This document shows positions 2,831-44,481 of a DNA stretch of 53,310 nt, one piece after another. The DNA lies in NCBI GenBank assembly GCA_019090225.1, contig JAHRWI010000172.1:1-53310 (forward strand). Direction: 5' to 3'. Position 1 is the first letter of the stretch. Each line of letters begins with the position of its first letter. The position numbers and the translations under genes were made by a program. Below the pieces are notes generated by a model. It searched no databases. It was given only the letters and a program-made list of their open reading frames with translations, and was not told the origin of the DNA. This DNA is from Porticoccaceae bacterium (GTDB taxonomy: Bacteria; Pseudomonadota; Gammaproteobacteria; Pseudomonadales; Porticoccaceae).

Positions 2831-2854
2831 CATCAAACGGTCGAGCCGCCTGGC

Positions 2855-3361: not shown

Positions 3362-3413
3362 TTGTTTCTCCTGAGGGGGTGGAAACCTGATGGTACAGGC
3401 GTACTGTAAACGA

Positions 3414-4721
3414 TTATCTTAAAAAGGGCGACCATGCTGGCTCTCTTACATCTCCAAGCCGGGAAGGCAGTATGTATTTAACGCCCGCATCTATCGACAC
3501 TGCGGCCAACACGCCTTTACCGCCAGCCTTAGTTGCGTATAACAACATCGCGCCATTAGGTGCCACCGTTGGTGATTCATCGAGACGGGTAGACGTGAGT
3601 ATTCTTAAATCTCCGGTAACAAGATCCTGGGATGCGATATGAAACACACCCTTATTTCTGTGCACCATCACCAATGTTCGACCATCTGCAGCCAGCCGCG
3701 GTCGCGCATTGTAGGATCCGCTAAAAGTTAAGCGTTGCAGCTTGCCCGTAGCGATAGTCAGCTTATAAATTTGTGGCGAACCACCCCGGTCCGAGGTAAA
3801 TACGACAGCATCGCCATCCGGCGTCCAATTGGGCTCGGTATCGATGGAGAAGTGCCGAGTCAAACGGGTAAAACTTCGAGTCAACAAACTATAGAGATAG
3901 ATTTCAGGATTACCGTCTTTAGACAGAACAATGGCCAACTGTTTGCCATCAGGGGACCAGGCCGGTGCGCCATTAAGGCCTCGAAAATTAGTCAGCTGCT
4001 CACGTTTCGCACCGGACAATTTTTGTCGAAAGATCGCCGGGCGACCAGTTTCGAAAGACACATAAACCAGCTCCTTACCATCCGGAGACCAATTTGGCGA
4101 CATAATCGGCTCTTTAGACTTGAGCATCAGCCGTTCCCGCGCCCCATCCGAGTCGGAGACCATCAATCGATAGACCAAAGCCCCACCTTCTGGGTTCGCG
4201 GTAACGTAGGCGAGTCGGGTAGAAAAAGCCCCTCGAATACCGGTAATAGCCTCAAACACTTTATCGCTAATGTAATGCGCGACATCCCGTAATTCATTGC
4301 CGGAACCCTGCACTCGGTGAGTGAATACCGTTCGTTCACTGGGCACTTCAAGCAGGCTGAACGTTATCTGGCTGCGACCATCGGACTGCGTGGCTGCTTT
4401 ACCGACCACCAGATACTCCATGCCGATAATTCGCCAGTCCCGGAAATATACATCTTTGACCGTCGCCGGATGGGACAACATATTGGCCCGTGGCATAGCC
4501 TCAAACAAACCGCTGCGGCGCAAATCCTCAGAGATAATCGCGCTTAGATCCACGTCCGCCGTACTCCCCAGCCGAATTGGTGCTACGGCAATTTGAGTTG
4601 GATTATCTGCGCCGCTGGTGATCTCGATAGTCAATTCCGCATGGGCCTGAGCAACGAGTACCAGCCCGAGCAAGAACGCGAATGCTAACCTGCCAATGCG
4701 TGTGTAAATGGGTTTAAACAA
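3414..4721 (-). CDS. tolB: Tol-Pal system beta-propeller protein TolB
   Basis: 435 aa. Signal peptide (AQAHA) and repeated WSPDG/WTPDG propeller blades. TTG start with a GGAG Shine-Dalgarno sequence 6 nt upstream. Confidence 0.93.
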
Positions 4722-4733
4722 GGGTGGCTCCTT

Positions 4734-4781
4734 TCTAAAGTACGGTTAATCTAAAGTACAGCTAATCTAAAGCACGGTTAA
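4734..4781. repeat. 3 tandem copies of a 16-nt unit in the tolA-tolB intergenic region
   Basis: The units are tctaaagtacggttaa (4734-4749), tctaaagtacagctaa (4750-4765) and tctaaagcacggttaa (4766-4781). Pairwise identity is 14-15 of 16. The array ends 4 nt from the tolB Shine-Dalgarno sequence. Confidence 0.85.
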
Positions 4782-4847
4782 AGTGCTCTCTACTAAATCA
4801 GCTTTAACTAAACAAGTTTCGCTGGGCACCATTTTCATTGGATACCA

Positions 4848-5624
4848 TTACAAACGTAAATCATCGGGGGTGAAAATCAACTTAAAATGCCTGAAGGTCT
4901 CTTCAAAGACCCTTGGGCTCGCCTCCGATAACTCCTGTAGCTTTTCAAAGCGCTCGACCTTATAAACAGCCTGTTCTGCGGAGCGATCAAAGGCATCATT
5001 GCCACTAGACCTCTCCACCGAAACGGCTATCACTCGCCCTGTAGGCACCAACTGAATGCTCAATACCACCTCCATCCCTCTGCGTGCGCTCGGCGGTCGA
5101 CTCCAATTATTGACGATACGATCCCGTATATAGGCACTGTAACTGCCGACTAGCTGGTCGTCCTGTTCCGCAGTGATATATTCTTCTTCTTCATCAAGAG
5201 CGTCAGCAAAAGCCTGCTCCTGTTTACGTCGAAGTGCTTCTGCGGCCTTTTCTCGCTCCTGTCGCAAGCGCTCCTTTTTTGCGAGTTCTTGTTTCTGCTT
5301 CTGTTTCTGCTTTTTCTCATTCCGCAAACGCGTTAGACGTTTGCTTTCCTCCAACTTCTTCGCTTCAGTGCGTTTTTTTGCTGCCAGTTCCTTTTGCTTA
5401 TTATCAACAGGTTTAGGCTTTACCGGCTTTTTGGCCACCTGTTTTTTTGTCACAGGCGCTTTGGGTGGCTTGACCTGTAACAAGGTCGCCTGAATATAGC
5501 GGGGTCGGATCTGCACCTCCTTTTTGCCCGGCGTCCAGCCAATAATCACCACTGCCAACAACAAGCCATGGAGAGTCAGGCTACAAAAAATCGCAGCTGA
5601 ATAGCCCGGCAACTTACCCTTCAC
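4848..5624 (-). CDS. tolA: Tol-Pal system protein TolA
   Basis: 258 aa. N-terminal TM with an S-x3-H motif (SLTLHG), a long K/E/Q/A-rich helical domain and a small C-terminal domain. Located between tolR and tolB. Confidence 0.88.
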   Translation of the reverse strand: MKGKLPGYSAAIFCSLTLHGLLLAVVIIGWTPGKKEVQIRPRYIQATLLQVKPPKAPVTKKQVAKKPVKPKPVDNKQKELAAKKRTEAKKLEESKRLTRLRNEKKQKQKQKQELAKKERLRQEREKAAEALRRKQEQAFADALDEEEEYITAEQDDQLVGSYSAYIRDRIVNNWSRPPSARRGMEVVLSIQLVPTGRVIAVSVERSSGNDAFDRSAEQAVYKVERFEKLQELSEASPRVFEETFRHFKLIFTPDDLRL

Positions 5625-5689
5625 AGGCCTTGCCCACCCTTCGCGAAGCCATGGGCTTTTTGGCCACCAACTTTATTAAACACAAACTA

Positions 5690-6130
5690 TTAGCGCTTCC
5701 CTGCTGGCGCTTCGGTCACCAGGCCGACACTGGCGGCACCAGCACCCTGCAATTGCGCCATCAGGTTAACAACAATACCGTATTCAACCCTGGTATCCCC
5801 CCAGACCAGTACCGGCGTATCGGGCTTCTGGGCCAGCACCTTGCCGACTTTAGTGACAATATCCAGCAAGGGTTCCTGAAGGTTCTTGCCATTACCCAGA
5901 TCGACGTAGTAGCTGCCATCTGCCTTGATAGAAACGATCAGTGGGTCCTTGGCTTTATCGTCCAGAGGGCTGGAGGGTGCTTTCGGCAAATCAACTTTTA
6001 CGCCCTGCATCAGCAGGGGCGCAGTGATCATAAAGACAATCAACAGCACCAGCATCACGTCGATGTAGGGCACAACATTGATTTCGGCGACAAATCGCCG
6101 CTTGCGTCTAGCAGGTTTTTTACTGGCCAT
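5690..6130 (-). CDS. tolR: Tol-Pal system protein TolR (ExbD/TolR family)
   Basis: 146 aa. Single TM AEINVVPYIDVMLVLLIVFMITAP with the conserved intramembrane Asp (D24). Confidence 0.92.
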   Translation of the reverse strand: MASKKPARRKRRFVAEINVVPYIDVMLVLLIVFMITAPLLMQGVKVDLPKAPSSPLDDKAKDPLIVSIKADGSYYVDLGNGKNLQEPLLDIVTKVGKVLAQKPDTPVLVWGDTRVEYGIVVNLMAQLQGAGAASVGLVTEAPAGKR

Positions 6131-6132
6131 AA

Positions 6133-6822
6133 TTAATTACTGTGTACCCGACGATGCAGCACGCTGGAAAACTCATCAGAAAAGGTTTCGTAGGCGTTAT
6201 AAAGCACATCGGCGTTGGCCGAAAAACGGTTATAGGCCAGCACGGCGGGAATGGCCGCGAATAAGCCCATGGCGGTGGCGATTAGCGCCTCCGAAATACC
6301 CGGCGCTACGGTCGCAAGGGTAGCCTGCTGAACATTCGCCAGACCACGAAATGAGTGCATAATACCCCAAACGGTGCCAAACAGGCCGATATAAGGGCTC
6401 ACCGAGGCAACACTGGCGAGAAACGGCAGATGCCGGTTGAGCTTCTCTTCTTCCCTCGACAGGGCCACTCGCATGGCTCGCTCGACGCCTTCCATTACCG
6501 CATCTGGGTCTGTCCCCCCACCTTGAGAAAGGCGGTTGAATTCACGAAAACCGGCGCGAAACAGATTTTCTACACCATCTACCATATTGTCTTTATTAAG
6601 CCGATTATTACCGCTCCGAAACAACTCATTGAGATCCACACCGGACCAAAAGGTGCCTTCAAACTTCTTTAAATCAACGCGGGTTTGCCGAATATACAGA
6701 CCCCGCTGGACGATCATCACCCAGGACACGACGGACGCGGCCAAAAGTATCAGCATCACCAACTGTACCGGTACTGTGGCACCGACGACCAATGCCCACA
6801 AAGATAGTTGTTCAGTCACCAA
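6133..6822 (-). CDS. tolQ: Tol-Pal system protein TolQ (MotA/ExbB/TolQ family)
   Basis: 229 aa. Three TM segments, with motifs PYIGLFGTVWGI and APGISEALIATAMGLFAAIP. Confidence 0.93.
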   Translation of the reverse strand: MVTEQLSLWALVVGATVPVQLVMLILLAASVVSWVMIVQRGLYIRQTRVDLKKFEGTFWSGVDLNELFRSGNNRLNKDNMVDGVENLFRAGFREFNRLSQGGGTDPDAVMEGVERAMRVALSREEEKLNRHLPFLASVASVSPYIGLFGTVWGIMHSFRGLANVQQATLATVAPGISEALIATAMGLFAAIPAVLAYNRFSANADVLYNAYETFSDEFSSVLHRRVHSN

Positions 6823-6888
6823 ATACTCCTGTTCGTGTTTGCCAATAAAACTCTGTTAATAAAGCGATTAGGTTGGTCCGCAAAATAT

Positions 6889-7299
6889 TCAAACCATGTC
6901 CTGGCCAAAAACTTTTTCCAATAACTCTTTAGGCATGGCCACCGGCCGGTTGGTACGCTGATTGACACAAGCGACTTTGATATGCCCGGTGCAGAGTAGT
7001 TCCTCATCTCGGAAAACATTTTGTTCCACTGTGAAATAAGCCCGACCGTGACCTGAACCCTGAGCGGTAACGACGATTTGATCGTCCAGTCTGGCGGGCT
7101 TTTTGTAATCTGCAGTCAGGGAATGGACGACAAATATCTTGTCATCATCCCAAAATGCCGGACTGGCAAAACCATAGCTGCGCAGCCAGTCGGAGCGCGC
7201 ACGTTCCATATACTTAAGGTAATTGACGTAATAGACGATGCCCTGGGCATCTGTGTCTTCAATATAAACCCTGATCGGCAGCCTGAATTCCTTGCTCAC
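6889..7299 (-). CDS. ybgC: tol-pal-associated acyl-CoA thioesterase YbgC (hotdog fold)
   Basis: 136 aa. 4HBT-type N-terminus VYIEDTDAQGIVYYVNY. Positioned upstream of tolQ. Confidence 0.88.
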   Translation of the reverse strand: MSKEFRLPIRVYIEDTDAQGIVYYVNYLKYMERARSDWLRSYGFASPAFWDDDKIFVVHSLTADYKKPARLDDQIVVTAQGSGHGRAYFTVEQNVFRDEELLCTGHIKVACVNQRTNRPVAMPKELLEKVFGQDMV

Positions 7300-16669: not shown

Positions 16670-17284
16670 ATGAAGGCAGTGGCTATGGCAATGTTCTTGA
16701 CGGTCAGTCTTTCTAATCTTTCCGCCTCTAATCTTTATGCGCAGGATAAAGCCCCGGCCAGATCTAACCTTGAACAAGCGAATACGCCAGCAGCGCAAAG
16801 CCACCAGGAGACACCGGGCTCGCTAAACACCCTTACACCACTTATTGCTATCCCCAACGCTAAGGCTCCTTTCCCTAACAGCCCCTCTGCCAATATCCTG
16901 GTCGGCGGGCAACCGAGTGTAGAAAATATTCGCGCAGCACATCGGGCAGGATACAAAACCATTATAAACCTACGTCCGAAAGGGGAATTCAAAGTCTGGG
17001 ATGAGGCTGCTCTCGCAGAACAACTCGGCATAAACTATATTCTGATACCTATCGATGGCAAGGCCGACATCACCTCCGAAAATGCTCTACGTCTGGATCA
17101 GGCCCTGCAGGCAAGGGCTCACTCACCCACCATTGTTCACTGTGCCAGCGGCAACCGCGTCGGCGCGTTGTTTGCACTTCGCGCGCAATTACAGGGTAGT
17201 GATCCAGAGGCCGCCATGGCAATTGGTCGGGCAGCAGGCTTAACCAGCCTGGCACCTCTGCTTAAAAAATTATTACAACCGTGA
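16670..17284 (+). CDS. secreted DUF442/PTP-like protein with a CX5R motif
   Basis: 204 aa. Signal peptide (ASNLYA-QD) and P-loop VHCASGNRVG. The start is 1 nt after the proS stop. Confidence 0.65.
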   Translation: MKAVAMAMFLTVSLSNLSASNLYAQDKAPARSNLEQANTPAAQSHQETPGSLNTLTPLIAIPNAKAPFPNSPSANILVGGQPSVENIRAAHRAGYKTIINLRPKGEFKVWDEAALAEQLGINYILIPIDGKADITSENALRLDQALQARAHSPTIVHCASGNRVGALFALRAQLQGSDPEAAMAIGRAAGLTSLAPLLKKLLQP

Positions 17285-17401: not shown

Positions 17402-18736
17402 ATGATCAAGTCGCGGCATATATTTAAGCTATGTCTGGCCCTCACACTGCTCATCACAGCTGGTGCATTCGCTTATGGGGATATGCTCCCAGATATAAGC
17501 AGCTCCGAAAACGCTGACACCCTCGAAGCAACTACAGAGAACAGCTCTACAACCAGCCAGCCGGTGGATCCCGGCGAGACTGATTCCACATCAGATATCG
17601 ATCACAACGATCACAAAAAGGATATGCAACAGGCCTTGGTAAGCTATCGCGCCGCCATTAAAGAACTCGACGAAAACGGGCCTTACCACGAACAGTCATC
17701 CGAGGCACTTTATGGACTCGGCATAGCGCTGAAAAGACAGGGCTTTTATGACGAGGCACTCAGCACTCTAGAACGAGCCATGCACGTCAACAGAGTCAAC
17801 CACGGCCTGCATAGTTTCTCCCAGACACCGATACTCAGAAGTATTATCGAACTCCAAAAAGCCCTCCACCAATTTGAAGAAGTGACTACGGACTATAATC
17901 GTCTGCTAAGGCTATTCCAGAAAAATCATGCCCGCAATGACCCCGCATTAATCCCTGTCTTTCAGGAATTAGCGCTTTGGCATGTCGATATTTATCAGCT
18001 AGATAACAGTGCTGAACGGGTCGATCATTTGACTACTGCACACAGCTTCATCAACGCAGCCATTAAAAAAGCCCAGCCCCCAAACCAACTGATCACCGAG
18101 GAAAAGATTGAGCTATTGCGAACCTCAGCGCTGATTAGTTTCTATTCCTCACAACATAAGGGCGATGAATGGCTTACCGCTACGGACTCCCGCTACAGCG
18201 CCAGTTCCGACAAAGACTTTATGGTTCCAACGCGCATGGCTACCCTGTCCAAAACCGGCTATCGACAGGGCCGTATCGCCCACGAGCAGATCATCGCCCT
18301 GGTTAATGCTGATCCCAACACCACGGCTCATCAAAAAATTAGCGCCTACGTAGAAACTGGCGACTGGCATTTGCTCTTCAATCATCGCAACGCAGCTATG
18401 CAGTATTATCAGCAGGCCCGCATACTGATGACACAAACAGACATGCCCCAGGAACTCAGCGAGCTATGGTTCTCACAGCCGAAAATTTTACCGAGTCTCA
18501 GAGCAGAAGATGGATCAGGAAACTCTGCGAGGCAATACATCAGCGCCCAGGTAGATATTTCTAAAAATGGACACCCCAGCGACATAAATATCCTCGAACC
18601 CGCCCCGGAAAAAAATGTGATGCTACGCAGAGCGGCTATCAAGACCCTTAGGAACGCACGTTTTAGGCCGCGCTTTGTTGGAGCTGAAGCTGTTAATAGC
18701 CCTGCCGCACTGATTAAAATACCTTTAATTCACTAA
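17402..18736 (+). CDS. secreted TPR-like protein with a C-terminal TonB_C-like domain
   Basis: The ORF track gives 17375 (GTG). The ATG at 17402 has an AAGGA Shine-Dalgarno sequence and gives the signal peptide MIKSRHIFKLCLALTLLITAGAFA-YG. TPR-like helices (EALYGLGIALKRQGFYDEALSTLERA). The C-terminus AQVDISKNGHPSDINILEPAPEKNVMLRRAAIKTLRNARFRPRF..IKIPL resembles the TonB C-terminal domain. Confidence 0.6.
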   Translation: MIKSRHIFKLCLALTLLITAGAFAYGDMLPDISSSENADTLEATTENSSTTSQPVDPGETDSTSDIDHNDHKKDMQQALVSYRAAIKELDENGPYHEQSSEALYGLGIALKRQGFYDEALSTLERAMHVNRVNHGLHSFSQTPILRSIIELQKALHQFEEVTTDYNRLLRLFQKNHARNDPALIPVFQELALWHVDIYQLDNSAERVDHLTTAHSFINAAIKKAQPPNQLITEEKIELLRTSALISFYSSQHKGDEWLTATDSRYSASSDKDFMVPTRMATLSKTGYRQGRIAHEQIIALVNADPNTTAHQKISAYVETGDWHLLFNHRNAAMQYYQQARILMTQTDMPQELSELWFSQPKILPSLRAEDGSGNSARQYISAQVDISKNGHPSDINILEPAPEKNVMLRRAAIKTLRNARFRPRFVGAEAVNSPAALIKIPLIH

Positions 18737-18748
18737 TACGCTGTCGCC

Positions 18749-19456
18749 ATGTCAAAACTTTATCGACCCTGCATCGCTATCGTTTCCACCCTCCTGCTCT
18801 TGGGTGTAACGGCCTGCGAAAGCACCTCCAGTAACAGCAGTTCCAGTAGTAGTTCTAGCGATAGCTCATCCACGAGCAGCTCCACTGCGTCATCCCAAAA
18901 CTCAGGCGCAGATTCATTAGAGTCCTCGGCTAACAACTCAACTAATTCAGCCGGATACCCGTCAGACGGTGGCCTGACAAACGAGGAGATCATCGGTGGT
19001 CTGGATACAGAGCTGGACGAATCCATCGCTGTCTTTGACGGTATGATTCTCGATGAGAGAGCTAAAGCCGAAGCCATTGTCGCTGACAGCTATGAGTCAG
19101 CAGGTGGAGACGGTGGCGATCCAGGTGAAGTCCTGTTTGAGGAAGGTGATCTCGAAGAAGGCCTGCCCGGCTATGGGGACTTCCCAGAAAGTGATGCTGA
19201 ATCAGACGAAGCCTCTGATTCCTCAGGCGACAATACGGATAATGGGGAGGATGGCGAGTCAACACCCAGTGACAAAGGCACCACCGGAGGTTCTTCGACC
19301 GCAGGTGGCATCCCCGAAGATATCAACGATGGCAGTGATGATGATATCGTCGCCCGCCAGATTCGCGAAGCCGCCCAAAAAGAAAAAGACCCTGTGCTAA
19401 GAGAAAAACTCTGGGACGAATACCGTAAATATAAAAATCAGCAGCGCGGAGGTTGA
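18749..19456 (+). CDS. lipoprotein: Ser-rich linker, strongly acidic region, conserved-looking C-terminal helix
   Basis: 235 aa. Lipobox LGVTAC, poly-Ser (SSNSSSSSSSSDSSSTSSS) and D/E/G-rich middle. C-terminus DDDIVARQIREAAQKEKDPVLREKLWDEYRKYK. Confidence 0.65.
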   Translation: MSKLYRPCIAIVSTLLLLGVTACESTSSNSSSSSSSSDSSSTSSSTASSQNSGADSLESSANNSTNSAGYPSDGGLTNEEIIGGLDTELDESIAVFDGMILDERAKAEAIVADSYESAGGDGGDPGEVLFEEGDLEEGLPGYGDFPESDAESDEASDSSGDNTDNGEDGESTPSDKGTTGGSSTAGGIPEDINDGSDDDIVARQIREAAQKEKDPVLREKLWDEYRKYKNQQRGG

Positions 19457-28203: not shown

Positions 28204-29183
28204 GGATTAGAAGGCGACCAGCGCCGGAGATCAGTATCTCCTTTCTCGATGTTATCAGCTGTGGCTTTGGTGCCATTGTGCTGCTCTTGCTAATTGCTCA
28301 AACTGTGGAATTTAGTGCGGTCGAATCCGGCGAACCCGAACAACAAAGCGTCGCAGCCCTACAGGAACAGCTATTCGCCCTGCGTGGCGATAACACAATC
28401 CTCAATCGCGAATTGATCACTAAGCAGGAGCAACTATCAGACCTGCGTGCTCGTATCGCCCGGCTCCGAGAACAATTGGCCAGCGTTGACAAAAGCCAGC
28501 AACATATTCCGGCGGACAATTCCGAACGTGATGAGCTAGCCCTCGCCCTGCAAGTGCTACAGGAAGAAATGGCGCGCCTGCTTGCCAGCCAGCCTCACAA
28601 GGATAATCAGGTGGTCGGCGGCATACCGGTCGATAGCGAATACATTGTTTTTATCGTCGATACCTCGGGCAGTATGTTTGATTTCGCCTGGCCAAAAGTA
28701 CGTCGTGAAATGATCAATATTCTCGACATATACCCCCAGGTCAAAGGTATTCAGATCATGAACGATATGGGTGACTATATGTTTTCCGGCTACAAAGGCC
28801 GATGGATACCCGATACCCCAGGGCGCCGCAAAGCCATTATCAATCGCCTCATCACCTGGACGCCATTCAGCAACTCCAGCCCAGTAGAGGGTATACAAAG
28901 AGCCATTCGAGCTTTTTACGCCCCCGACAAAAAAATCAGTCTGTATGTTTTCGGGGATGATTTTACCGGCGGCTCAATTCACACCGTACTCAAGACCGTT
29001 GATCGTATTAACGCAAGCCGACGCAAGGGCGATCGTCTGGTGCGCATTCATACTATTGGCTTTCCGGTGCATTTTCTGGTCCCTGGCGGGCGAGCGCAAA
29101 CAGCGACACGTTTTGCAGCATTGATGCGCGAACTCAGTTATCGTAACGGAGGAACCTTTGTTGGCCTAAACAGCCTTAATTGA
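28200..29183 (+). CDS. TolR/ExbD-like TM helix + coiled coil + vWA domain protein (paralog 2, partly degenerate MIDAS)
   Basis: The ATG at 28200 overlaps the upstream stop (ATGA); the track alternative is the TTG at 28194. N-terminus RRPAPEISISFLDVISCGFGAIVLLLLIA with Asp17 (gat at 28248-28250). Coiled coil present. vWA motif IVFIVDTSGSMF (DxSxS), but the GGT and TDG positions read SSPVEG and FGDDFTG. Confidence 0.75.
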   Translation: MRIRRRPAPEISISFLDVISCGFGAIVLLLLIAQTVEFSAVESGEPEQQSVAALQEQLFALRGDNTILNRELITKQEQLSDLRARIARLREQLASVDKSQQHIPADNSERDELALALQVLQEEMARLLASQPHKDNQVVGGIPVDSEYIVFIVDTSGSMFDFAWPKVRREMINILDIYPQVKGIQIMNDMGDYMFSGYKGRWIPDTPGRRKAIINRLITWTPFSNSSPVEGIQRAIRAFYAPDKKISLYVFGDDFTGGSIHTVLKTVDRINASRRKGDRLVRIHTIGFPVHFLVPGGRAQTATRFAALMRELSYRNGGTFVGLNSLN

Positions 29184-29253
29184 CTCAGACCTTTACTCAC
29201 CTGATTCAGGTAGCAACAGTGCAGAATATAGCGCTAACAACTCTCTAAACAAT

Positions 29254-29949
29254 ATGAGAACACTACGCCTAACATTCATGATTCTTTGGTCTGCGCTGAT
29301 ACTAACTAGCTGCGCGACCCATGTTGAGGTGAGCGGAACCTTTCCTACGCCGCTCAACAAACAACTGCCCATAAGCTCGGTGGTGGTATTCGACCAGGCA
29401 TTTAGCTCCTACCGCTTTGAAAACACCGATGGCCGGGAAGTCAGCATCGCCGTCGGCCAAACTCAGGTCGATCTATTTACTGCCATAACAAAAAGCGTAT
29501 TTGAAAGCGCTACCTTTACCAATACTATGCCGACAGCGGCTGACACCGACCTGATCCTCGTGCCTAGAGTCGAGGAAGTACAAATATCCATGCCCTATCA
29601 AACCAAGCTCAACGTCTTTGAGGTGTGGATCAAATACAATCTCCAGGTCTTTGACCACAACGGCGAAGCCGTCGCTGACTGGATTATGTCGGCCTACGGT
29701 AAAACCCCGACTAAATTTCTGAAATCCGACAGCAAGGCTCTAAACCAGGCGGCAATCGTTGCTCTGCGCGATGCCGGCGCCCACTTTATTATCGCCTTTG
29801 ACCGCGTGCCAGAAATCCGCCAGTGGCTCGATAACAAAAACGGCCAGGCCCGCTTATCCACAGACACTCTTTCACAAAGTAAGCCTTCACAAGCTAGGCC
29901 CCCAGAAAACAAAACACCATCGGATAAGCCAGAGGCCACCACCCTGTGA
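29254..29949 (+). CDS. lipoprotein of unknown function
   Basis: 231 aa. Lipobox LILTSC and a P/S/K-rich C-terminal tail. Confidence 0.6.
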   Translation: MRTLRLTFMILWSALILTSCATHVEVSGTFPTPLNKQLPISSVVVFDQAFSSYRFENTDGREVSIAVGQTQVDLFTAITKSVFESATFTNTMPTAADTDLILVPRVEEVQISMPYQTKLNVFEVWIKYNLQVFDHNGEAVADWIMSAYGKTPTKFLKSDSKALNQAAIVALRDAGAHFIIAFDRVPEIRQWLDNKNGQARLSTDTLSQSKPSQARPPENKTPSDKPEATTL

Positions 29950-30605
29950 CTAAAGCTTGTCTGATCACAGCCATTGCCTGTCTGTACGTACTCCTTGTCG
30001 GGTGTACCACCACCACAGTCGATGAGTACCGCGAAAGCAATGAACAGTTGTCCCTTCTAAGTGGTGACAAAGTGGTCGTACTCGGTCGCCGACACGCCAG
30101 TGATCACGAAACCGAGCCGGACTTTATTGACTGCATCGGCAAAGAGCTAGGTAACGCCACCGCCCTAAACGTCATCAATGAACCTGCTTTTATGGATTCT
30201 GTTTACCCCTGGTTTGAGCCGCGCACCGCGCCCCTGGGTCTTAAGCGTATGAGCAAAATGCTCAACGAACCAATGATAGCGACACGTATCCAGTCACAAA
30301 ACCTGCGCTACATCATCTGGATAGATGGCAGCACGGAGACCACAGACCGGGAAGGTTCTGTGAGTTGCGCCATCGGCCCCGGCGGCGGTGGTTGCTTTGG
30401 CTTTGCTACCTGGGAAAAGCAGGGGGTTTACGAAGCCATCATATGGGATCTCAAAGACATGGCCGAACACGGGCGGGTTAAGGTCAATGCCAAAGGTTCG
30501 TCCTACATGATCGCTATCGGCCTGCCGATACCAATTATTGCTCAAGTTCAAGACCAGGCATGTGAAGGTATCGGCAAACAATTGCGCGCTTTCTTTACGG
30601 GCTAA
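29946..30605 (+). CDS. lipoprotein of unknown function
   Basis: 219 aa. GTG start overlapping the upstream stop (GTGA). Lipobox LLVGC. Several cysteines and a GPGGGGCFGF segment. Confidence 0.55.
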   Translation: MTKACLITAIACLYVLLVGCTTTTVDEYRESNEQLSLLSGDKVVVLGRRHASDHETEPDFIDCIGKELGNATALNVINEPAFMDSVYPWFEPRTAPLGLKRMSKMLNEPMIATRIQSQNLRYIIWIDGSTETTDREGSVSCAIGPGGGGCFGFATWEKQGVYEAIIWDLKDMAEHGRVKVNAKGSSYMIAIGLPIPIIAQVQDQACEGIGKQLRAFFTG

Positions 30606-30670: not shown

Positions 30671-32143
30671 ATGCTCATACACATATTACGTTTACCGCAT
30701 TTTTTTATTATCAGTCTTGCTGTGTTGTTCGGCCTACAGGCTAATTTTTCGCTCGCCATATCTGAAAAAAAAGCCGCCGAAATTGGCAAGAAAATGTACG
30801 AAGAAATCACCGCAGAAATGCCCATTTACATAGATAAAAAACTTAACGATTACGTCTCAGGTGTCGGCCAAAAGCTGATCAAATATTCCGACCAACCTGA
30901 CCTCAACTATACCTTTACTATTATCGACAGCCCCGATATCAATGCTTTCGCGACACCCGGCGCTTACATTTACGTCAATCGCGGCTTGTTGGCCTACATG
31001 AATTCGGAGGCTCAGTTGGCTGCGGTTCTGGGTCATGAATTAGCCCATGTCACTGCCGACCATGCCTCCCGTCAAAAAAACGCTCAAACAGGCTCCAACG
31101 TCGTGGCAGGATTATTGGCTGTGCTCACTGGCAGCGCCGACGTCGGTGAAGCCTCTGCGATGTGGGGCGCAGCGACGGTAAAAGGCTACGGTCGCGACAT
31201 GGAACTGGAAGCAGACGCCATTGGTGCAAAAACCATGGCTCGGGCGGGCTACCCCGTGGATGCAATGATCACCATTATTTCGCAATTGAAAGACCACGAG
31301 CGGTTTATGAAAAAACGCAATAAGGACTCCGGTAAAAAAACCCAGAGTTACCACGGCATATTTTCAAGCCACCCCCGCAATGACAAACGTCTACGAGAGA
31401 TAGTCAAGAAATCGGGCGCTGACCTGGACAGCTCTAAAACCGGCGACCCCGGCATCGTACCGTTCAGAGTCGCCACCCAAAACCTGCCCTGGGGTCAGAC
31501 CACCCAAACACCGGCACGACAGGACAAGCGCTACTATGATGACAAATTAAATTTTAGCTTCGATTACCCAGACGGTTGGCAGTTCCAGGAAAAGGCCAAA
31601 CAAGTGCTTGGCAACAGAGAAGATGATTCAGCCAGCCTGGTGCTGGATGTTAAAGCCCGCACACTCGACTCACCCGAGCAATATATCAAGAAAGTTCTTG
31701 GCATCAGTTTTATTAAAAAGTCCGAGTCAACTGTCGTCAATCGCCTGAAAGGCCACACAGGAACCATCCCCGGTAAAAATAACGCTAACGACATCCGCAT
31801 TGCGGTTATTTATTATGGCCGACACGCCTTTGTGTTCAGGGGGATTGTCGATGCTGGCTCCGCTCTCGACAATACAGCGCCAAAAATCGGCGAGTCCTCT
31901 GCACAATCGTATGACGCAGAATTCAAGAGCATTATTGCCAGCTTTCAGCCGCGCTCGCCCCGCCGAAGTACTGCGCACACCGGTACTATCAAATATGTCA
32001 AAGCCAGCTCATCGGCCACTTACGCCAAGCTGGCGAGACAACTTAATCTCGGCAAATACGGCAAAGACCAGCTACAACTCATCAACGGACATTACCCAGG
32101 TAGCGAGCCTCAGGCCGGGCAGTGGATAAAGATTATTCGCTAA
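30671..32143 (+). CDS. secreted M48-family zinc metalloprotease with a C-terminal LysM domain
   Basis: 490 aa. Signal peptide and HExxH (LGHELAHV). C-terminal LysM-like segment (IKYVKASSSATYAKLARQLNL...LQLINGH...GQWIKII). Confidence 0.8.
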   Translation: MLIHILRLPHFFIISLAVLFGLQANFSLAISEKKAAEIGKKMYEEITAEMPIYIDKKLNDYVSGVGQKLIKYSDQPDLNYTFTIIDSPDINAFATPGAYIYVNRGLLAYMNSEAQLAAVLGHELAHVTADHASRQKNAQTGSNVVAGLLAVLTGSADVGEASAMWGAATVKGYGRDMELEADAIGAKTMARAGYPVDAMITIISQLKDHERFMKKRNKDSGKKTQSYHGIFSSHPRNDKRLREIVKKSGADLDSSKTGDPGIVPFRVATQNLPWGQTTQTPARQDKRYYDDKLNFSFDYPDGWQFQEKAKQVLGNREDDSASLVLDVKARTLDSPEQYIKKVLGISFIKKSESTVVNRLKGHTGTIPGKNNANDIRIAVIYYGRHAFVFRGIVDAGSALDNTAPKIGESSAQSYDAEFKSIIASFQPRSPRRSTAHTGTIKYVKASSSATYAKLARQLNLGKYGKDQLQLINGHYPGSEPQAGQWIKIIR

Positions 32144-34093: not shown

Positions 34094-35032
34094 ATGCGCT
34101 ATTTAATCTGTGTTGTTTTGGTCTTGCTCTCAGCCTGTGATAGTCGCGATGAAAATGTCGCACTTGGTACGCTGGAAAGGGACCGCATCGCCCATACGGC
34201 CACGGTTAACGAGGTAGTGACATCGCTCCCGGTGGCGCAGGGCAGCCTCGTTTCTAAAGGCACTATGCTGGTTCAGCTTGACGATACGCAACAAAAAGCC
34301 CGGATCGCCAAAGCCGAGGCGGAAGTCGTTCAGGCTGAGGTCAATCTCGAGAAACTGCGTAATGGCGCGCGTGAAGAAGAAGTTGCCGCAGCCCGCGCCA
34401 GGGTCGCTGGTGCCAAAGCCGCATTGGTTGAAAGTGAAGCCAACTACAAACGGGCAAAAAACCTGGTCAAGCGCAAGCTAAGCAGCCAGGCCAGTCTCGA
34501 TCAAAGTCTGGCCGCTCGCGATGCCGCGCTGGCCAATTTGCAAACTGCTCAGGAGCATTTACGAGAGCTTACCAATGGTACCCGTGAAGAAGATCTACGT
34601 ATAGCCGAAGCCAGCCTTGACGCGGTTATCGCGATATTAGCCAGCGAAAATAAGAAGCTGGCTGACTTAACTATTATTGCTACCCGCGATGGCATTCTCG
34701 ATAACTTGCCTTGGAACCTGGGAGAACGCGTCAGCTCGGGCAGTCCACTGGCCATTGTATTGGCGGGTAAAGCGCCCTACGCCCGGATTTATGTGCCTGA
34801 ACCCTATCGAGTGAAAATAAAAGTCGGCGATAAAATGGCTGTCCACGTTGACGGCCTGGAGCAAGCCATTACCGGGGAGTTACGCTGGGTTTCCAGCGAG
34901 CCAGCATTTTCGCCTTATTACGCCTTAAACCAGGATGAGCGTTCCCGCCTGATGTACTTAGCAGAAGTGCAGCTCCCGGACAGCGAAGCCCACTTGCCTA
35001 ACGGGGTGCCTGCGCAAGTTGAGCTGCCATGA
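34094..35032 (+). CDS. HlyD-family membrane fusion/periplasmic adaptor protein
   Basis: 312 aa. Lipobox-like LLSAC, long coiled-coil hairpin and beta-barrel motifs (ATRDGILDNL, GDKMAVHVDG). Confidence 0.85.
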   Translation: MRYLICVVLVLLSACDSRDENVALGTLERDRIAHTATVNEVVTSLPVAQGSLVSKGTMLVQLDDTQQKARIAKAEAEVVQAEVNLEKLRNGAREEEVAAARARVAGAKAALVESEANYKRAKNLVKRKLSSQASLDQSLAARDAALANLQTAQEHLRELTNGTREEDLRIAEASLDAVIAILASENKKLADLTIIATRDGILDNLPWNLGERVSSGSPLAIVLAGKAPYARIYVPEPYRVKIKVGDKMAVHVDGLEQAITGELRWVSSEPAFSPYYALNQDERSRLMYLAEVQLPDSEAHLPNGVPAQVELP

Positions 35033-35970
35033 ACGACTATGTCATCAAAGCATCTAATTTAAGCCGAAATTTCGGTGATATAAAGGCCATACAAGGCCTC
35101 GACCTTAACGTGGAAAAAGGCCGAATATACGGGTTTTTGGGCCCTAACGGTTGCGGCAAGACCACCGCCATTCGCCTCTTAACCGGGCTCTTAAAACCAA
35201 GTGCCGGTGAGATTCAGGTATTGGGATTTACACTGCCAAGAGATGCTCAAAAACTGCGCCTGCATATTGGCTACATGACACAAAAATTCTCACTTTACGA
35301 TGATTTAACAGTCCAGGAAAACCTGGGGTTTATTGCAAAAATATATGGCTTGTCTGGTCGAGCAAAACGCCAACGCATTGATGAACTGATAAGCACCTAC
35401 GGACTTGAGCAAACAACTCAACAGTTGGCCGGGACCATGAGTGGAGGACAAAGACAACGACTCGCTCTGGCAGCCGCCACTTTACACAAACCTGAATTAT
35501 TGTTTCTTGATGAACCGACTTCGGCTGTCGACCCTGAGAATCGGCGTGATTTTTGGGAAAAATTATTTGACCTCAGTGACCAAGGCGCCAGCATCCTGGT
35601 TTCCACTCACTATATGGATGAAGCAGAACGCTGCCACAAGCTGGCGATATTAGAGACGGGTATTAAGCGCGCCGATGGTTCACCCGAGACGCTGATGGAA
35701 GAAATGGGCGCCCATGTTGTCGAAGTAGCGTCATCCGACCTGCGTCAGCTGAAACAAAGTTTACTCGTAATTCCTGAAGTAATTACCGCTGCTCAACTAG
35801 GCGCTCGCCTGCGGGTACTGCTTAAAAATACTGTCGCTGACCCCCTGGCGTTTTTAAGACAGCAAAAAAATATTGCTCCTGAAGACACCTTAAGTCTGGT
35901 TCGACCCAGCCTGGAAGACGTATTCGTGACTTGTACCGGCAAGAGTCGGCAATTGAGCAAAGCTTCGTGA
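35029..35970 (+). CDS. ABC transporter ATP-binding protein (ABC-2 exporter type)
   Basis: 313 aa. Walker A GPNGCGKTT, signature MSGGQRQRL and Walker B LLFLDEPTS. Overlaps the HlyD stop (ATGA). Confidence 0.92.
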   Translation: MNDYVIKASNLSRNFGDIKAIQGLDLNVEKGRIYGFLGPNGCGKTTAIRLLTGLLKPSAGEIQVLGFTLPRDAQKLRLHIGYMTQKFSLYDDLTVQENLGFIAKIYGLSGRAKRQRIDELISTYGLEQTTQQLAGTMSGGQRQRLALAAATLHKPELLFLDEPTSAVDPENRRDFWEKLFDLSDQGASILVSTHYMDEAERCHKLAILETGIKRADGSPETLMEEMGAHVVEVASSDLRQLKQSLLVIPEVITAAQLGARLRVLLKNTVADPLAFLRQQKNIAPEDTLSLVRPSLEDVFVTCTGKSRQLSKAS

Positions 35971-37112
35971 AGGGACTATCGAGAATCCAGGCGATCTTTA
36001 GCAAAGAGCTCACTCAACTCAAGCGGGACAAAATGACCTTTGGCATGGTGATAATGATCCCGCTCATCCAGCTTATGCTATTTGGTTTCGCCATCAACAC
36101 CAACGTTCGCCACATACCAGCAGGTATCGTTGATTACAGTCAAACGGGCTTGAGTCGAATTTTAATTCAAACCATAGGCGCCACCCAGGTAGTCAAGTTT
36201 TCTCAGCAGTATATGAATGTCGATCAGGCTGAAGCGGCCATTGCCCGCGCCGAAATACGCGCGGTTTTGGTGATACCCAAAGATGTCAGCCAACGCCTGG
36301 CCCGCCATCCAACCGTTGGTTTGGGCTCGCCTCCCTCAAGCGATGAAGAAACCAGCCGCGCCATTGCCCAGTGGGTGGTCGACGGCTCCGACACCATGAT
36401 TGCCGCAGCGATTAAAAGCTTACGCTATATGCCGCTGGCAGAACTGCTCAACAAGCCAGTCAACCGGAGCACCCCTACCTTCGAGGTGACCTTACTTTAT
36501 AACCCTGAACAACGTACCGCCGTGAACATTGTCCCCGGCCTGGTAGGCATCATCTTAACCATGACCATGATTATGTTTACTTCAGCAGCTATTGTCCGGG
36601 AGCGGGAGCGAGGCAATCTGGAAATGTTGATTACCACACCAGTACGACCCATTGAACTAATGCTGGGGAAAATTATTCCCTACATGTTTATTGGCGCTTT
36701 ACAGGTCGCCATTATTTTAGGCCTGGGCTACGTGGTATTTAATGTGCCTTTCAATGGTGGCCTGTGGCAACTGGCCGGGGCGACCTTGATGTTTATCGCC
36801 GCTAGTCTAGTGCTCGGTTTAGTGATTTCGACCCTGGCGAAAAACCAGCTGCAAGCAACGCAAATGACCATATTTGTATTGCTACCTTCGATACTCTTAT
36901 CCGGATTTGTCTTTCCCTACGAAGGCATGCCCGAACTCGCTCAACGCATCGCCGAAATCTTACCAGCCACACATTTCATGCGCTTGGTTCGTGGCGTAAT
37001 TTTACGTGACGTAGAAATAATCGATATGAGATATGACATGATCTGGCTAGCACTATTCACAGCGATCGGTTTAGCAATCGCATCTTTTAGATTTAAGAAA
37101 AATCTGGATTAG
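35967..37112 (+). CDS. ABC-2 type transporter permease
   Basis: The track ORF starts at 35931. The GTG at 35967 overlaps the ATPase stop (GTGA) and gives the typical N-terminus VKGLSRIQAIFSKELTQLKRDK. Six predicted TM segments. Confidence 0.85.
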   Translation: MKGLSRIQAIFSKELTQLKRDKMTFGMVIMIPLIQLMLFGFAINTNVRHIPAGIVDYSQTGLSRILIQTIGATQVVKFSQQYMNVDQAEAAIARAEIRAVLVIPKDVSQRLARHPTVGLGSPPSSDEETSRAIAQWVVDGSDTMIAAAIKSLRYMPLAELLNKPVNRSTPTFEVTLLYNPEQRTAVNIVPGLVGIILTMTMIMFTSAAIVRERERGNLEMLITTPVRPIELMLGKIIPYMFIGALQVAIILGLGYVVFNVPFNGGLWQLAGATLMFIAASLVLGLVISTLAKNQLQATQMTIFVLLPSILLSGFVFPYEGMPELAQRIAEILPATHFMRLVRGVILRDVEIIDMRYDMIWLALFTAIGLAIASFRFKKNLD

Positions 37113-39186: not shown

Positions 39187-40722
39187 GTGATGACATCCCG
39201 CAAGCAGATTTACCTGTTATCGACGATACTTATCTGCGTCGGCCTGGGTCTGACCCTCTATAAATACTTTTTCCTGCACTTTCCTCTGTTACCCGGCAGC
39301 GTCCGCACGGTGTGGAGTGTAGAAGCAAAAATTTCTTTTAACGCTAGAGATAATTCCGTGTCGGCCGACCTGGCCTTACCCAGTATGCAGGGCGGTTATG
39401 AAATTCTTGACGAAACATTTGCGTCTTCGGGCTACCAGTTCAACATCGAAAACTTTGACGGCCAGCGCCGCGCCATCTGGGCAAACGACCACAATTCAGG
39501 TGCGCAAAATTTGTACTACAGCATGCAGGTAACACCTCGCATCAGTCGAGATATAACAACGACAGCAGCCGGCAAACCACCCAGCCATGTGTCAAAACCC
39601 ATCTGGTTAGCCGCGCAACGAGAAGCTGCATTAAGCATTATCAAATTGGCGGAAGAGCGGGCGGCCACGCCGGATAATTTCACCTACGAACTACTAAAAA
39701 TACTCAGCGGTGATCAACAGGCCGACGATACCTACCGGCTCATTAGCGCCGACAAGAGCATCTCGCGGGCCAATATGGCGTTGAAGTTGCTGGCTGAAGC
39801 CGGTGAGCAGGCGCATATTATTCGCGGCGTACAACTGGGTAACCGCACCCATAATGACCCCCCAGCGGAATTGATCGAAGTCTATGAGTCTTCCCAGTGG
39901 AAAATTTACAATCCTGACACCGCAACAGTCGGTTTACCTGATGATTTTTTTATCTGGCAACGGGGCGGCCCTTCGTTGCTTGATGTGGTCGGCGGCAGTC
40001 AGTCAAAAATTCGCTTCTCGGTGTTGTCCAATGTGATTCCGGCCAAGAATATCGCCCTCAAGCTGGCCAGAGAGCAAACCGTCGCCCTGGTCGATTTCAA
40101 CATCTACAGCTTGCCGGTGGAAAAACAGAATGTCTTCAAGTCTCTATTGCTGGTGCCAATCGGCGCGCTGGTGGTGGTGATTTTCCAGATATGGATTGGC
40201 GTGCGCACCTCAGGCACCTTTATGCCGGTGCTGATCGCGCTGGCCTTTATCCAAACCACCCTGTTCACTGGTATCGCCATCCTCCTGGTTCTCGTGGGCA
40301 TGGGCCTGTGGATACGCTCTTATCTGAGCAAAACGGATTTGCATATGGCTGCCCGCATCGGCGCAGTGTTGATAATCGTGGTAATTCTGATGGCAGGTTT
40401 TAGTGTGGCCAGTCATAAACTCGGTATCGATCAGGCCCTTAGTCTGACTTTTTTCCCCATGGTGATACTGGCCTGGACCATAGAACGCATGTCCATCACC
40501 TGGGAGGAAGACGGACCCAAGGAGGTCGCTATTCAGGGCAGCGGCAGTTTGATCGTAGCCATCGCTGCCTATCTGGCAATGACCAATAGTCTGGTCGAGC
40601 ATCTAACCTTTAACTTTCCCGAGCTACTTTTAGGCGTCCTCGGAGTTATTCTCCTGCTCGGTCAATACACCGGTTTCAGGCTGCTTGAATTCTACCGGTT
40701 TCGGCATATGGATAGCGACTAA
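39187..40722 (+). CDS. 7-TM protein with an N-terminal transglutaminase-like (probably inactive) periplasmic domain
   Basis: 511 aa. One N-terminal TM, a soluble domain of about 300 aa, then about 6-7 TM helices. Positioned between the retropepsin-like gene and the RimK-like gene. Confidence 0.65.
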   Translation: MMTSRKQIYLLSTILICVGLGLTLYKYFFLHFPLLPGSVRTVWSVEAKISFNARDNSVSADLALPSMQGGYEILDETFASSGYQFNIENFDGQRRAIWANDHNSGAQNLYYSMQVTPRISRDITTTAAGKPPSHVSKPIWLAAQREAALSIIKLAEERAATPDNFTYELLKILSGDQQADDTYRLISADKSISRANMALKLLAEAGEQAHIIRGVQLGNRTHNDPPAELIEVYESSQWKIYNPDTATVGLPDDFFIWQRGGPSLLDVVGGSQSKIRFSVLSNVIPAKNIALKLAREQTVALVDFNIYSLPVEKQNVFKSLLLVPIGALVVVIFQIWIGVRTSGTFMPVLIALAFIQTTLFTGIAILLVLVGMGLWIRSYLSKTDLHMAARIGAVLIIVVILMAGFSVASHKLGIDQALSLTFFPMVILAWTIERMSITWEEDGPKEVAIQGSGSLIVAIAAYLAMTNSLVEHLTFNFPELLLGVLGVILLLGQYTGFRLLEFYRFRHMDSD

Positions 40723-43691: not shown

Positions 43692-44481
43692 TAATCAAGC
43701 CTCGTCTGAGACATCAAATTTGAAAACACCTCTACAATCAGAACCACTTTTGCAAACCCAGCCGCTTCTAGTAGCCGAGTCCCTGGGTAAAACCGTACCC
43801 GGCCCCGATGGCGAACTCACCTTGCTCGAAGGCATTGATTTTACCCTATCCCCCGGCCAAAGCGTGGCCATTACCGGCCCTTCTGGGAGTGGCAAATCGA
43901 CCTTGCTGGGTTTACTGGCGGGACTCGACACGCCCACATCAGGGCAAGTCTTGCTTGAGGGCAAGCCATTCAGCCAGCTTGATGAGGATGGCCGGGCCAT
44001 TCGGCGTGGACAACTTTGCGCCTTTGTGTTCCAGCATTTCCACCTGGTCAACGATTTAAACGCCCTGGAAAATGTCATGCTGCCCCTGGAGCTCAAGGGT
44101 GCCGCCAACCCGAAAGTCACTGCCAGTCACTGGCTGGAACGAGTTGGTCTGGAGCATCGACTCAAGCATTTCCCCTCTACGCTCTCCGGTGGGGAACAAC
44201 AGCGTGTTGCTCTGGCCCGGGCCTTTGCTGTACAGCCGCGCTTACTCTTTGCCGACGAACCCACGGGCAGTCTGGACCATGCCAATGGCGGACGCATCGG
44301 GGAGTTATTATTCGATCTGAATCGCGAAACCGGCACCGCCCTGGTACTGGTCACCCACGACGAACAACTGGCCGGGCGTTGCCAGCGCCACCTGCAACTG
44401 GAAGAAGGTCGTCTTTTTGAAAAGCCGGAGCCCGGTCCCGTAAGTACGAAGGAAATAAGCGCCAGGGACGCTGCCCCATGA
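43672..44481 (+). CDS. ybbA: ABC transporter ATP-binding protein YbbA-like
   Basis: 269 aa. Walker A GPSGSGKST, signature LSGGEQQRVALAR and Walker B LLFADEPTGSLD. The conserved core starts near LLVAESLGK, so the TTG at 43750 is an alternative start. Confidence 0.88.
   Translation: MNKIPDINQASSETSNLKTPLQSEPLLQTQPLLVAESLGKTVPGPDGELTLLEGIDFTLSPGQSVAITGPSGSGKSTLLGLLAGLDTPTSGQVLLEGKPFSQLDEDGRAIRRGQLCAFVFQHFHLVNDLNALENVMLPLELKGAANPKVTASHWLERVGLEHRLKHFPSTLSGGEQQRVALARAFAVQPRLLFADEPTGSLDHANGGRIGELLFDLNRETGTALVLVTHDEQLAGRCQRHLQLEEGRLFEKPEPGPVSTKEISARDAAP

Follow-up and report, generated by a model that had tools for sequence, protein, structure and literature searches.

A twelve-gene block of a Porticoccaceae bacterium, conserved as a unit and predicted to encode a trans-envelope machine with a TolQ-like channel and paired vWA proteins

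The stretch of DNA analysed here, referred to as the window, comprises 53,310 nt of contig JAHRWI010000172.1 from a Porticoccaceae bacterium. The system in question is a block of twelve open reading frames (ORFs), labelled g1 to g12, which together cover positions 17402-30605 on the plus strand. An earlier note, made from the sequence alone, had singled out this block as a candidate undescribed trans-envelope system driven by the proton-motive force (PMF) and had counted 13 genes in it. The ORF reading gave twelve, no further conserved ORF was found within 17402-30605, and the list of components in the note itself also sums to twelve. The six junctions which it reported all proved exact when the sequence was read again. 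They comprise the motifs TTGA at 19453-19456, TAATG at 22207-22211, ATGA at 28200-28203 and GTGA at 29946-29949, a 2-nt gap (TAA-cc-ATG, 24312-24319, with the g6 ATG at 24317) and a 1-nt gap (TGA-t-ATG, 27129-27135, with the g9 ATG at 27133). The other intergenic gaps in the block are of 12, 12, 96, 136 and 70 nt. The first of the overlaps depends on the start codon of g3, which is ambiguous: TTG at 19453 gives the 4-nt overlap, and ATG at 19468 (MKACFYY...LLSGC) leaves a gap of 11 nt and yields a more typical lipoprotein signal peptide. The true start of g3 may be the ATG at 19468, which would abolish the overlap. A search of Rfam did not find an RNA element in the block. The OmpA/MotB anchors, MoxR, TonB-dependent receptors, secretins and pilins listed as absent in the earlier note were indeed not represented: none of the twelve proteins matched these families or ExbD/TolR in Pfam or NCBIfam.

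An alignment of g7, the channel gene of the block, was used to scan the species-representative genomes of GTDB (about 185,000, one for each species), and g7 relatives were present in at least 598 of them (598 of the 600 stretches returned were confirmed). The counts of genome loci given below refer to the best 80 of these at least 598 loci, and the conservation tally to the 53 loci whose flanks extend for 8 kb or more upstream and 6 kb or more downstream. The representative library contained 160 clusters of the family at 50 % identity (E <= 1e-30). Porticoccaceae, Microbulbifer, Halieaceae, Arenicella, Thalassomonas and Azotimanducaceae are among the best 80 loci, and in essentially all of these loci the homologues of the twelve window proteins lie on the same strand and in the same order. 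The alternative named in the earlier note, that the genes do not co-occur elsewhere, is contradicted by this shared order. Collinearity was observed in more than 100 loci of Gamma- and Alphaproteobacteria with protein identities down to 25-40 %, and the sequence identity of the block follows taxonomy. The flanks of the block are not conserved: the most frequent cluster of flanking ORFs was present in 12 of 54 loci, and clustering of the unassigned flanking ORFs revealed no further conserved neighbour. The block is a real unit, well above chance.

The most conserved gene of the block is g7, with 60-78 % identity among the best 80 genome loci. Its assignment to the MotA/ExbB/TolQ family of channels, made previously from the sequence, was supported by the match to Pfam MotA_ExbB (Table 1). 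The AlphaFold2 model of g7 (predicted local distance difference test, pLDDT, 82) had TolQ and ExbB as its nearest folds, with TM-scores of 0.65-0.70 versus about 0.39 for MotA. Two threonines, T189 and T222, are invariant and are located in the two C-terminal helices, which agrees with a predicted 5:2 assembly in which a ring of conserved Thr encloses two Asp residues.

The products of g9 and g10 are paralogues (BLASTP 7e-10) that share the transmembrane motif and the DxSxS motif of the metal-ion-dependent adhesion site (MIDAS). Both start with a short basic cytoplasmic tail followed by the single helix SFLD(I/V)xxCGFGA and continue, as read from the sequence, with a heptad-rich coiled-coil segment of about 100 residues and a vWA domain. 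The Asp of the helix, kept in at least 90 % of the orthologues of g9 and of g10, resembles the proton-binding Asp of TolR, ExbD and MotB. In g9 the MIDAS is complete and conserved (DxSxS, GT, D). The earlier description of two paralogous proteins with a TolR/ExbD-like helix, a coiled coil and a vWA domain therefore stood as far as the helix Asp, the MIDAS and the paralogy are concerned, and was not matched by Pfam in the case of g10, for which no match of its own was found. Genes g7, g9 and g10 were found together in every locus of sufficient length (53 of the 53 with full flanks). Since no ExbD-type gene is present, a g9-g10 heterodimer serving as the axle of a g7 pentamer is the simplest reading.

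Table 1. Genes of the block and the adjoining protease gene, with the number of loci (out of the 53 with full flanks) in which a homologue was detected by profile hidden Markov models (HMMs); g4 was left out of this tally
Gene	Position	Strand	Loci of 53	Predicted product and features
g1	17402..18736	+	50	Periplasmic TPR + TonB_C protein with cleavable signal peptide; TPR_12 2.5e-9, TonB_C 8.7e-5
g2	18749..19456	+	52	Acidic Ser/Asp/Glu-rich lipoprotein with conserved C-terminal helix; lipobox LLGVTAC
g3	19453..20664	+	52	Lipoprotein of 403 aa with Gly-zipper-like C-terminal segment; lipobox LLSGC; universal core
g4	20677..22209	+		Bitopic inner-membrane protein: short cytoplasmic tail, one transmembrane helix, periplasmic TPR, C-terminal beta domain; TPR_1 2.3e-13
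g5	22209..24314	+	53	Bitopic protein: acidic cytoplasmic tail, one transmembrane helix, five PEGA repeats, head with formylglycine-generating enzyme (FGE) fold, GldK-like
g6	24317..24610	+	53	Small secreted protein of 97 aa, poorly conserved; signal peptide by reading
g7	24707..25504	+	53	MotA_ExbB channel of TolQ/ExbB fold, predicted pentameric stator; Pfam MotA_ExbB 2e-15
g8	25641..27131	+	53	Cytoplasmic protein: Hsp70 nucleotide-binding-domain (NBD)-like domain, disordered linker, degenerate FHA-like beta domain
g9	27133..28203	+	53	N-in single transmembrane helix (SFLDIMACGFGA, Asp17), coiled coil, periplasmic vWA; VWA_2 3e-9
g10	28200..29183	+	53	Paralogue of g9 (SFLDVISCGFGA, Asp17), coiled coil, vWA-like domain with DTSGS
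g11	29254..29949	+	51	Lipoprotein with invariant lipobox Cys20; accessory
g12	29946..30605	+	51	Lipoprotein with invariant C20, C63, C141, C150 and C206; accessory
M48 (BepA-like) protease	30671..32143	+	36	Periplasmic metalloprotease; Peptidase_M48 4.5e-35; BepA model 6.6e-36, under its cut-off

Among the remaining products, the secreted TPR and TonB_C-like protein predicted earlier was identified as g1. Although the TonB_C match of g1 alone is marginal and lies under the Pfam cut-off, the domain was recognised at the family level, where 12 of 17 orthologues match and a search with the family profile reaches solved TonB C-terminal domains (2e-10). The N-termini of the family are signal peptides of the ordinary kind and lack a conserved His; g1 was therefore considered a soluble periplasmic protein and not a TonB-like anchored transducer. 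The membrane-anchored TPR protein of the same prediction corresponds to g4, which has one transmembrane helix and a clear TPR_1 match. In g5 the PEGA model matched in five stretches (1.3e-55) and FGE-sulfatase at 7.4e-43 (Pfam), and the best NCBIfam match was GldK (5.5e-36, 124.7 bits versus a cut-off of 350). The Cys pair of the formylglycine-generating enzyme is absent from the C-terminal RGxSW region of g5, here as well as family-wide, and g5 is therefore regarded as a GldK-like, non-enzymatic FGE fold. Its previous description as a PEGA-repeat and Cys-less FGE-fold protein was right about the five repeats, the fold and the missing catalytic pair, but one Cys does exist in the protein, the sole C520.

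The four predicted lipoproteins are g2, g3, g11 and g12. Lipoboxes were read in all of them and the Cys is conserved in the orthologues of g3, g11 and g12, with the GC of the g3 lipobox retained in the family consensus. The g2 protein has a pI of 4.05 and consists of Asp and Glu in 21 %. No match was obtained for any of the four in Pfam, in NCBIfam or in searches of PDB profiles. The four further invariant Cys residues of g12 likely form two disulfides.

The cytoplasmic degenerate Hsp70-like protein of the earlier prediction was confirmed by structure as g8. Its AlphaFold2 model (pLDDT 84) showed the Hsp70 NBD fold in residues 1-330 (Foldseek E 4e-16 and target-normalised TM-score of about 0.7, with many Hsp70 NBDs), while no sequence-family match was found in Pfam or PDB and none of the 39 + 22 g8 homologues scanned matched Pfam HSP70. 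By reading, the glycine-rich phosphate loops DLGTT and DLGGGT are changed to ELNDS and DIQLH, and these forms are conserved in the family. Since both phosphate-binding loops are replaced, the ATPase activity of g8 is doubtful. The C-terminal beta domain (residues 402-496) is FHA-like and is not an Hsp70 substrate-binding domain. An FHA domain, which the earlier note had named only among the searches to run, is present in cryptic form at this end of g8. The homologues of g8 in loci L081 and L147 carry a canonical FHA domain (Pfam 4e-13) with the motifs GVSRRHC and SRYGTFLNG; the g8 of the window aligns with it but is devoid of the SRRH and NG phosphothreonine-binding residues and has no Pfam FHA match.

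Distant loci came from a scan of metagenomes in which remote g7 relatives served as seeds and from a look-up of L081, and with the profile HMMs three architectures of the block were distinguished. The full form comprises the twelve genes as in the window. In the kinase form, g4 is enlarged to 730-830 aa by an N-terminal Ser/Thr kinase (Pfam Pkinase, 1e-28 to 4e-10) and g8 is present. A Woeseiaceae-like subset of this form (L081, L115, L132, L133, L140 and L147) is devoid of g1, g11 and g12. Locus L081 (1-15087) comes from a metagenomic genome, and its channel protein shares 85 % identity with a Woeseiaceae protein. Upstream it encodes a stand-alone Ser/Thr kinase with a double zinc ribbon and a PP2C phosphatase, and downstream, where g11 and g12 would stand, an OmpA/Gly-zipper lipoprotein. 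The extra stand-alone kinase was confirmed in L133. An intermediate group (L070, L071, L078 of Azotimanducaceae, L150 and L159) has a weaker kinase match and no detectable FHA domain, and in these loci g1, g12 and g11 are grouped upstream of g2, with g12 and g11 inverted. The joint relocation in five loci suggests that g1, g11 and g12 form a separable module.

The minimal form is (g2)-g3-g4-g5-g7-g9-g10, without g8, g1, g11 and g12. The loci lacking g8 number 19, and g2 is present in most loci of the minimal type. Gene g6 was detected in the full and kinase loci and, among those without g8, only in the atypical L106, L134 and L137; the HMM gave no g6 match in the distant minimal loci of the Idiomarina/Alteromonas type. 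Exact look-up assigned minimal-type loci to Idiomarina loihiensis (AAV83016.1), Alteromonas, Methylophaga, Sneathiella and Candidatus Puniceispirillaceae (SAR116), the last two being Alphaproteobacteria. Genes g3, g4, g5, g7, g9 and g10 are common to the three architectures, save that g3 is missing from L119 (upstream reach sufficient) and g4 from L137, and they are therefore considered the core. With few exceptions the core is retained down to 30-40 % g7 identity, Alphaproteobacteria included. The conserved Asp helix and the DxSxS MIDAS motif of g9/g10 also extend across all three architectures; the minimal-type examples that were read carry FLD, and the strict search pattern missed many of the distant ones. 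The accessory modules are g8 (with g6), g1 + g11 + g12, and the kinase with PP2C. The kinase fused to g4, the PP2C phosphatase and the canonical FHA domain of g8 in the Woeseiaceae-like loci indicate that threonine phosphorylation probably gates the machine there. The window has lost the kinase, and the FHA site of its g8 has degenerated, hence this g8 probably acts without phosphorylation.

The motor part of the block has a published counterpart. In PMC12204202 (Mol Biol Evol 2025, section 8, Fig. 4c-d), heterologous pairs of vWA genes were described in tight linkage with a TolQ-like gene; the vWA proteins carry a TolR-like 'trans-pore helix' with a conserved Asp, and tolR/exbD is absent. A 5:2 motor with a vWA axle was put forward there, and AlphaFold3 places the two Asp residues inside the Thr ring of the pentamer. 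The seed of that family came from I. loihiensis, and the gene clusters in Fig. 4c of PMC12204202 sample its homologues. The window has the linked channel gene, no tolR, exbD or motB, the paired vWA proteins with the Asp helix, and homology to the seed. In locus L087 the channel protein is AAV83016.1 of I. loihiensis, 40 % identical to g7 over the full length (2e-58), and the profiles of g9 and g10 recognise the adjoining genes (3e-79 and 2e-67); the locus carries g3-g4-g5-g7-g9-g10. Because the I. loihiensis channel is homologous to g7 and L087 carries the core, the window was classified as an expanded member of the family from PMC12204202.

The motor triad alone is discussed in PMC12204202, whereas the window has nine more conserved genes. 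The Idiomarina-type loci keep g3, g4 and g5 like the window and are devoid of g8, g6, g1, g11 and g12. The text of PMC12204202 makes no mention of the PEGA/FGE protein, the Hsp70-like/FHA protein, kinases or lipoproteins, and literature searches returned nothing on the other nine genes, the extended apparatus or the kinase/FHA variant. A survey of conflict systems (PMC7159879, eLife 2020) includes vWA, Hsp70 and PEGA themes but not the g1-g12 system, and vWA partners are not mentioned in a survey of MotAB (PMC12505986, mBio 2025). The term 'undescribed', used for the system previously, is thus too broad for the motor triad, published in silico, and fits the other nine genes, which were not found in the literature. 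What appears to be new is the full list of conserved parts, the division into core and accessory genes over three architectures, the Hsp70-NBD/FHA adaptor linked to Ser/Thr kinases and the culturable hosts.

We propose, with a probability of roughly 60 %, that the twelve genes encode one envelope-spanning, PMF-driven machine with an inner-membrane motor of the '5:2' type. Five g7 subunits would ring the g9-g10 heterodimer and the proton flow would turn or stroke this axle, whose coiled-coil stalk would carry the two vWA heads across the periplasm. The MIDAS sites could then grip an acidic ligand on a partner protein, the candidates being g2, g3 and the GldK-like head of g5, which would be held out on the stalk of five PEGA domains. 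Together g4 and g5 would constitute a periplasmic scaffold anchored in the inner membrane, reminiscent of GldK/GldN above the GldLM motor of type 9 secretion. In the full form, g1, g11 and g12 may add a module near the outer membrane. On the cytoplasmic face g8 is predicted to be a regulator or scaffold, which would depend on phosphothreonine where a kinase exists and be independent of phosphorylation in the window. The output would be mechanical work on a complex of outer-membrane lipoproteins, such as tethering, remodelling or moving a surface component.

Several points weigh against this proposal. The 5:2 stoichiometry and the heterodimeric axle are predictions, the coiled coils and the membrane topology of g9 and g10 were read from sequence only, and the ligand of the MIDAS sites is a guess. 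The outer-membrane location of g2, g3, g11 and g12 is predicted from their lipoboxes. Three of the gaps within the block measure 70-136 nt, the operon structure is unproven, and scans for promoters and terminators performed at chance level and were uninformative about the operon limits. The minimal form does without g8, so the basic function does not require it. In addition, PMC12204202 reports no known phenotype for the vWA-axle motor family.

The broader claim is that the block represents the complete apparatus of a widespread class of proton-driven trans-envelope machines, in which a MIDAS-headed axle acts on dedicated lipoproteins and a GldK-like scaffold, a Ser/Thr switch operates via the Hsp70-like/FHA adaptor in some lineages, and the task is distinct from those of the Tol, Ton, flagellar, gliding, type 9 secretion and Zorya systems. 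This claim is made tentatively, at slightly less than even odds. Ion-driven motors of the 5:2 type are at work in the flagellum, in Ton uptake, in the maintenance of the envelope by Tol-Pal, in gliding with type 9 secretion and in Zorya defence, and each newly understood family has shown another route by which inner-membrane energy reaches the outer envelope. The hosts of the present block include the abundant marine groups Porticoccaceae, Halieaceae, Woeseiaceae, Alteromonas and SAR116, and the culturable ones (Alteromonas macleodii, I. loihiensis, Microbulbifer and Methylophaga), together with the parts list and the likely phospho-regulatory input, make the role of the motor directly testable.

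The earlier statement that the vWA domains and the Hsp70-like partner of the block fit none of the Ton/Tol, Agl-Glt and type 9 secretion systems was upheld, as the defining features of each of them fail in the block, and those of Zorya likewise. The likeness to Tol-Pal and Ton lies in the TolQ/ExbB fold of g7, the single-helix partners with Asp, the TonB_C domain of g1, the lipoprotein partners and the PMF energy that is presumably passed on to the outer membrane. In contrast to Tol and Ton, the axle proteins of the block have a coiled coil and a vWA domain in place of the TolR/ExbD periplasmic domain, and the block is devoid of a membrane-anchored TolA/TonB (SHLS/His helix), TolB, Pal and a TonB-dependent receptor, g1 being secreted. 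Tol-Pal was rejected on the lack of TolR, TolA, TolB and Pal, the full set being encoded elsewhere in the window, and Ton on the lack of an ExbD match and on the N-terminus of g1, a cleavable signal peptide without the conserved His. Flagellar MotAB was likewise rejected, there being no OmpA domain and the fold of g7 scoring lower against MotA than against TolQ/ExbB.

A different function, considered unlikely yet the least so among the alternatives, is that of a trans-envelope sensing or signalling device, in which the vWA, TPR and FGE-like domains detect a cue and pass it to the module of kinase, PP2C, FHA and Hsp70-like parts, the TolQ-like channel merely coupling the sensing to membrane energisation. 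Bacterial kinases commonly bear FGE-fold and TPR ectodomains as sensor modules, and the loci of the kinase type have the Ser/Thr kinase fused to g4, the separate kinase, PP2C and the canonical FHA domain, as this function would predict. Type 6 secretion is under threonine-phosphorylation control by PpkA-PppA-Fha1, and the kinase-type loci similarly pair a membrane Ser/Thr kinase, PP2C and an FHA protein with an envelope machine; they differ in the fusion of FHA to an Hsp70-NBD-like domain and in the absence of structural genes of type 6 secretion, and the window has neither the kinase nor the phosphothreonine-binding residues. Other observations speak against this function. The kinase, PP2C and the phosphothreonine site of FHA are missing from most loci, including the window and the whole minimal type, whereas the motor triad and g5 are kept everywhere, as are g3 and g4 apart from single exceptions. 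Conservation of the proton-binding Asp and of the Thr-bearing helices exceeds that of any putative sensor part, and no linked transcription factor or other output gene was found.

Somewhat less probable still is a proteobacterial counterpart of type 9 secretion and gliding or of the Agl-Glt focal adhesion, which would move or expose an adhesin or drive export across the outer membrane. As in gldKLMN, a gene for a non-catalytic, GldK-like FGE fold stands just upstream of a 5:2-type motor, here with the small g6 in between, and the single-helix partners have a long periplasmic arm. However, g5 is anchored by a transmembrane helix, bears PEGA repeats and is not a lipoprotein, its GldK score is far under the cut-off, g7 is of the MotA_ExbB and not the GldL type, and the hosts are Proteobacteria. 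In the NCBIfam search no match to GldL, GldM, GldN or translocon homologues was found in the block. The GldKLMN system was rejected on this absence and on the 124.7 bits of g5 against the required 350.

The resemblance to AglRQS-Glt consists in one TolQ-like channel with two single-helix proteins, the TPR and TonB_C-type proteins and the lipoproteins. According to PMC3169522, the Agl-Glt core complex consists of aglRQS and gltDEGC and is found also in Cellvibrionales, its function in Gammaproteobacteria being unknown. The gammaproteobacterial proteins in Table S3 of that paper (Luciano et al.) are AglQ/S of the ExbD/TolR type with 162-185 aa, GltD of about 950-1016 aa, GltC of about 650-690 aa and GltG of about 325 aa. 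Agl-Glt cooperates with CglB, a vWA adhesin (bioRxiv 10.1101/2020.07.22.216333), which would give the vWA domains of the block a parallel. Yet a vWA axle, a PEGA-FGE protein and an Hsp70-like protein are all absent from Glt, and the block has neither ExbD-type AglQ/S nor the large TPR proteins (about 1000 and 650 aa). Being fused to the motor helix, the vWA domains of the block stay tethered to the inner membrane, and no conserved outer-membrane barrel, translocon, secretin or cargo gene was found in or beside the block. The Agl-Glt core complex was rejected on architecture, the sizes and annotations of Table S3 having no match in the block.

A Zorya-like role in anti-phage defence or conflict, with a MotA-like channel at its centre, is very improbable. 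Zorya too joins a 5:2 motor to unusual effectors, and vWA, FHA, kinase and Hsp70-like parts are known in conflict systems (PMC7159879). PADLOC run on ten proteins (all but g2 and g6) gave only a faint ZorA match (E 0.0047, 14 bits), which falls over the generic channel helices, and Zorya and other catalogued defence systems were rejected. Against a defence function, the block has no nuclease or other effector, its gene order is fixed across whole families and the identities track taxonomy. Its neighbours are housekeeping genes, namely ruvB, aspS, proS and tol-pal (NCBIfam, above cut-offs), and g9 gave no match in plasmid and phage records, by which the block appears to be housekeeping rather than mobile. 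A chance juxtaposition of unrelated operons, which the three gaps of 70-136 nt and the scans giving no operon evidence might have favoured, is effectively refuted by the collinearity in more than 100 loci at low identities and between unconserved flanks.

The complete ybgC-tolQRAB-pal-cpoB operon of the window lies at 1758-7299 on the minus strand (NCBIfam, above cut-offs). The earlier note was right that a bona fide tolQRAB-pal set is present and separate from the block; the interval of 3414-6822 quoted for it leaves out pal, located at 2855-3361. On the other side, the M48 protease gene starts 65 nt after g12 and adjoins the block in 36 of the 53 complete genome loci. It was not found beside the Woeseiaceae-like kinase loci or the minimal loci, and may be a lineage-specific accessory outside the core. 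A DSP/PTP-like phosphatase with a signal peptide (Pfam PTP-NADK and BLH_phosphatase) is encoded at 16670-17284 on the plus strand, beginning 1 nt after proS and ending 117 nt before g1; no counterpart was found beside the block in the best 80 genome loci.

Further downstream, at 34094-37112 on the plus strand, the genes for an HlyD-like adaptor, an ABC ATPase and an ABC-2 permease are tightly packed and encode a putative efflux or export transporter. The segment 38461-41682 (plus strand) contains a gene for an inactive-transglutaminase and 7TM_transglut protein at 39187-40722 (Pfam 4e-100 and 2e-40) with two flanking ORFs on the same strand, and these genes may constitute a separate small system. 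The GC content rises locally to 0.58 at 44001-46922, compared with about 0.50 elsewhere, which coincides with the gene for an 814-aa FtsX-like permease (44478-46922). At the very edge of the window, positions 1-61 of the minus strand hold a tRNA gene truncated by the end of the sequence, which was detected by Rfam at 50 bits and not called by ARAGORN.

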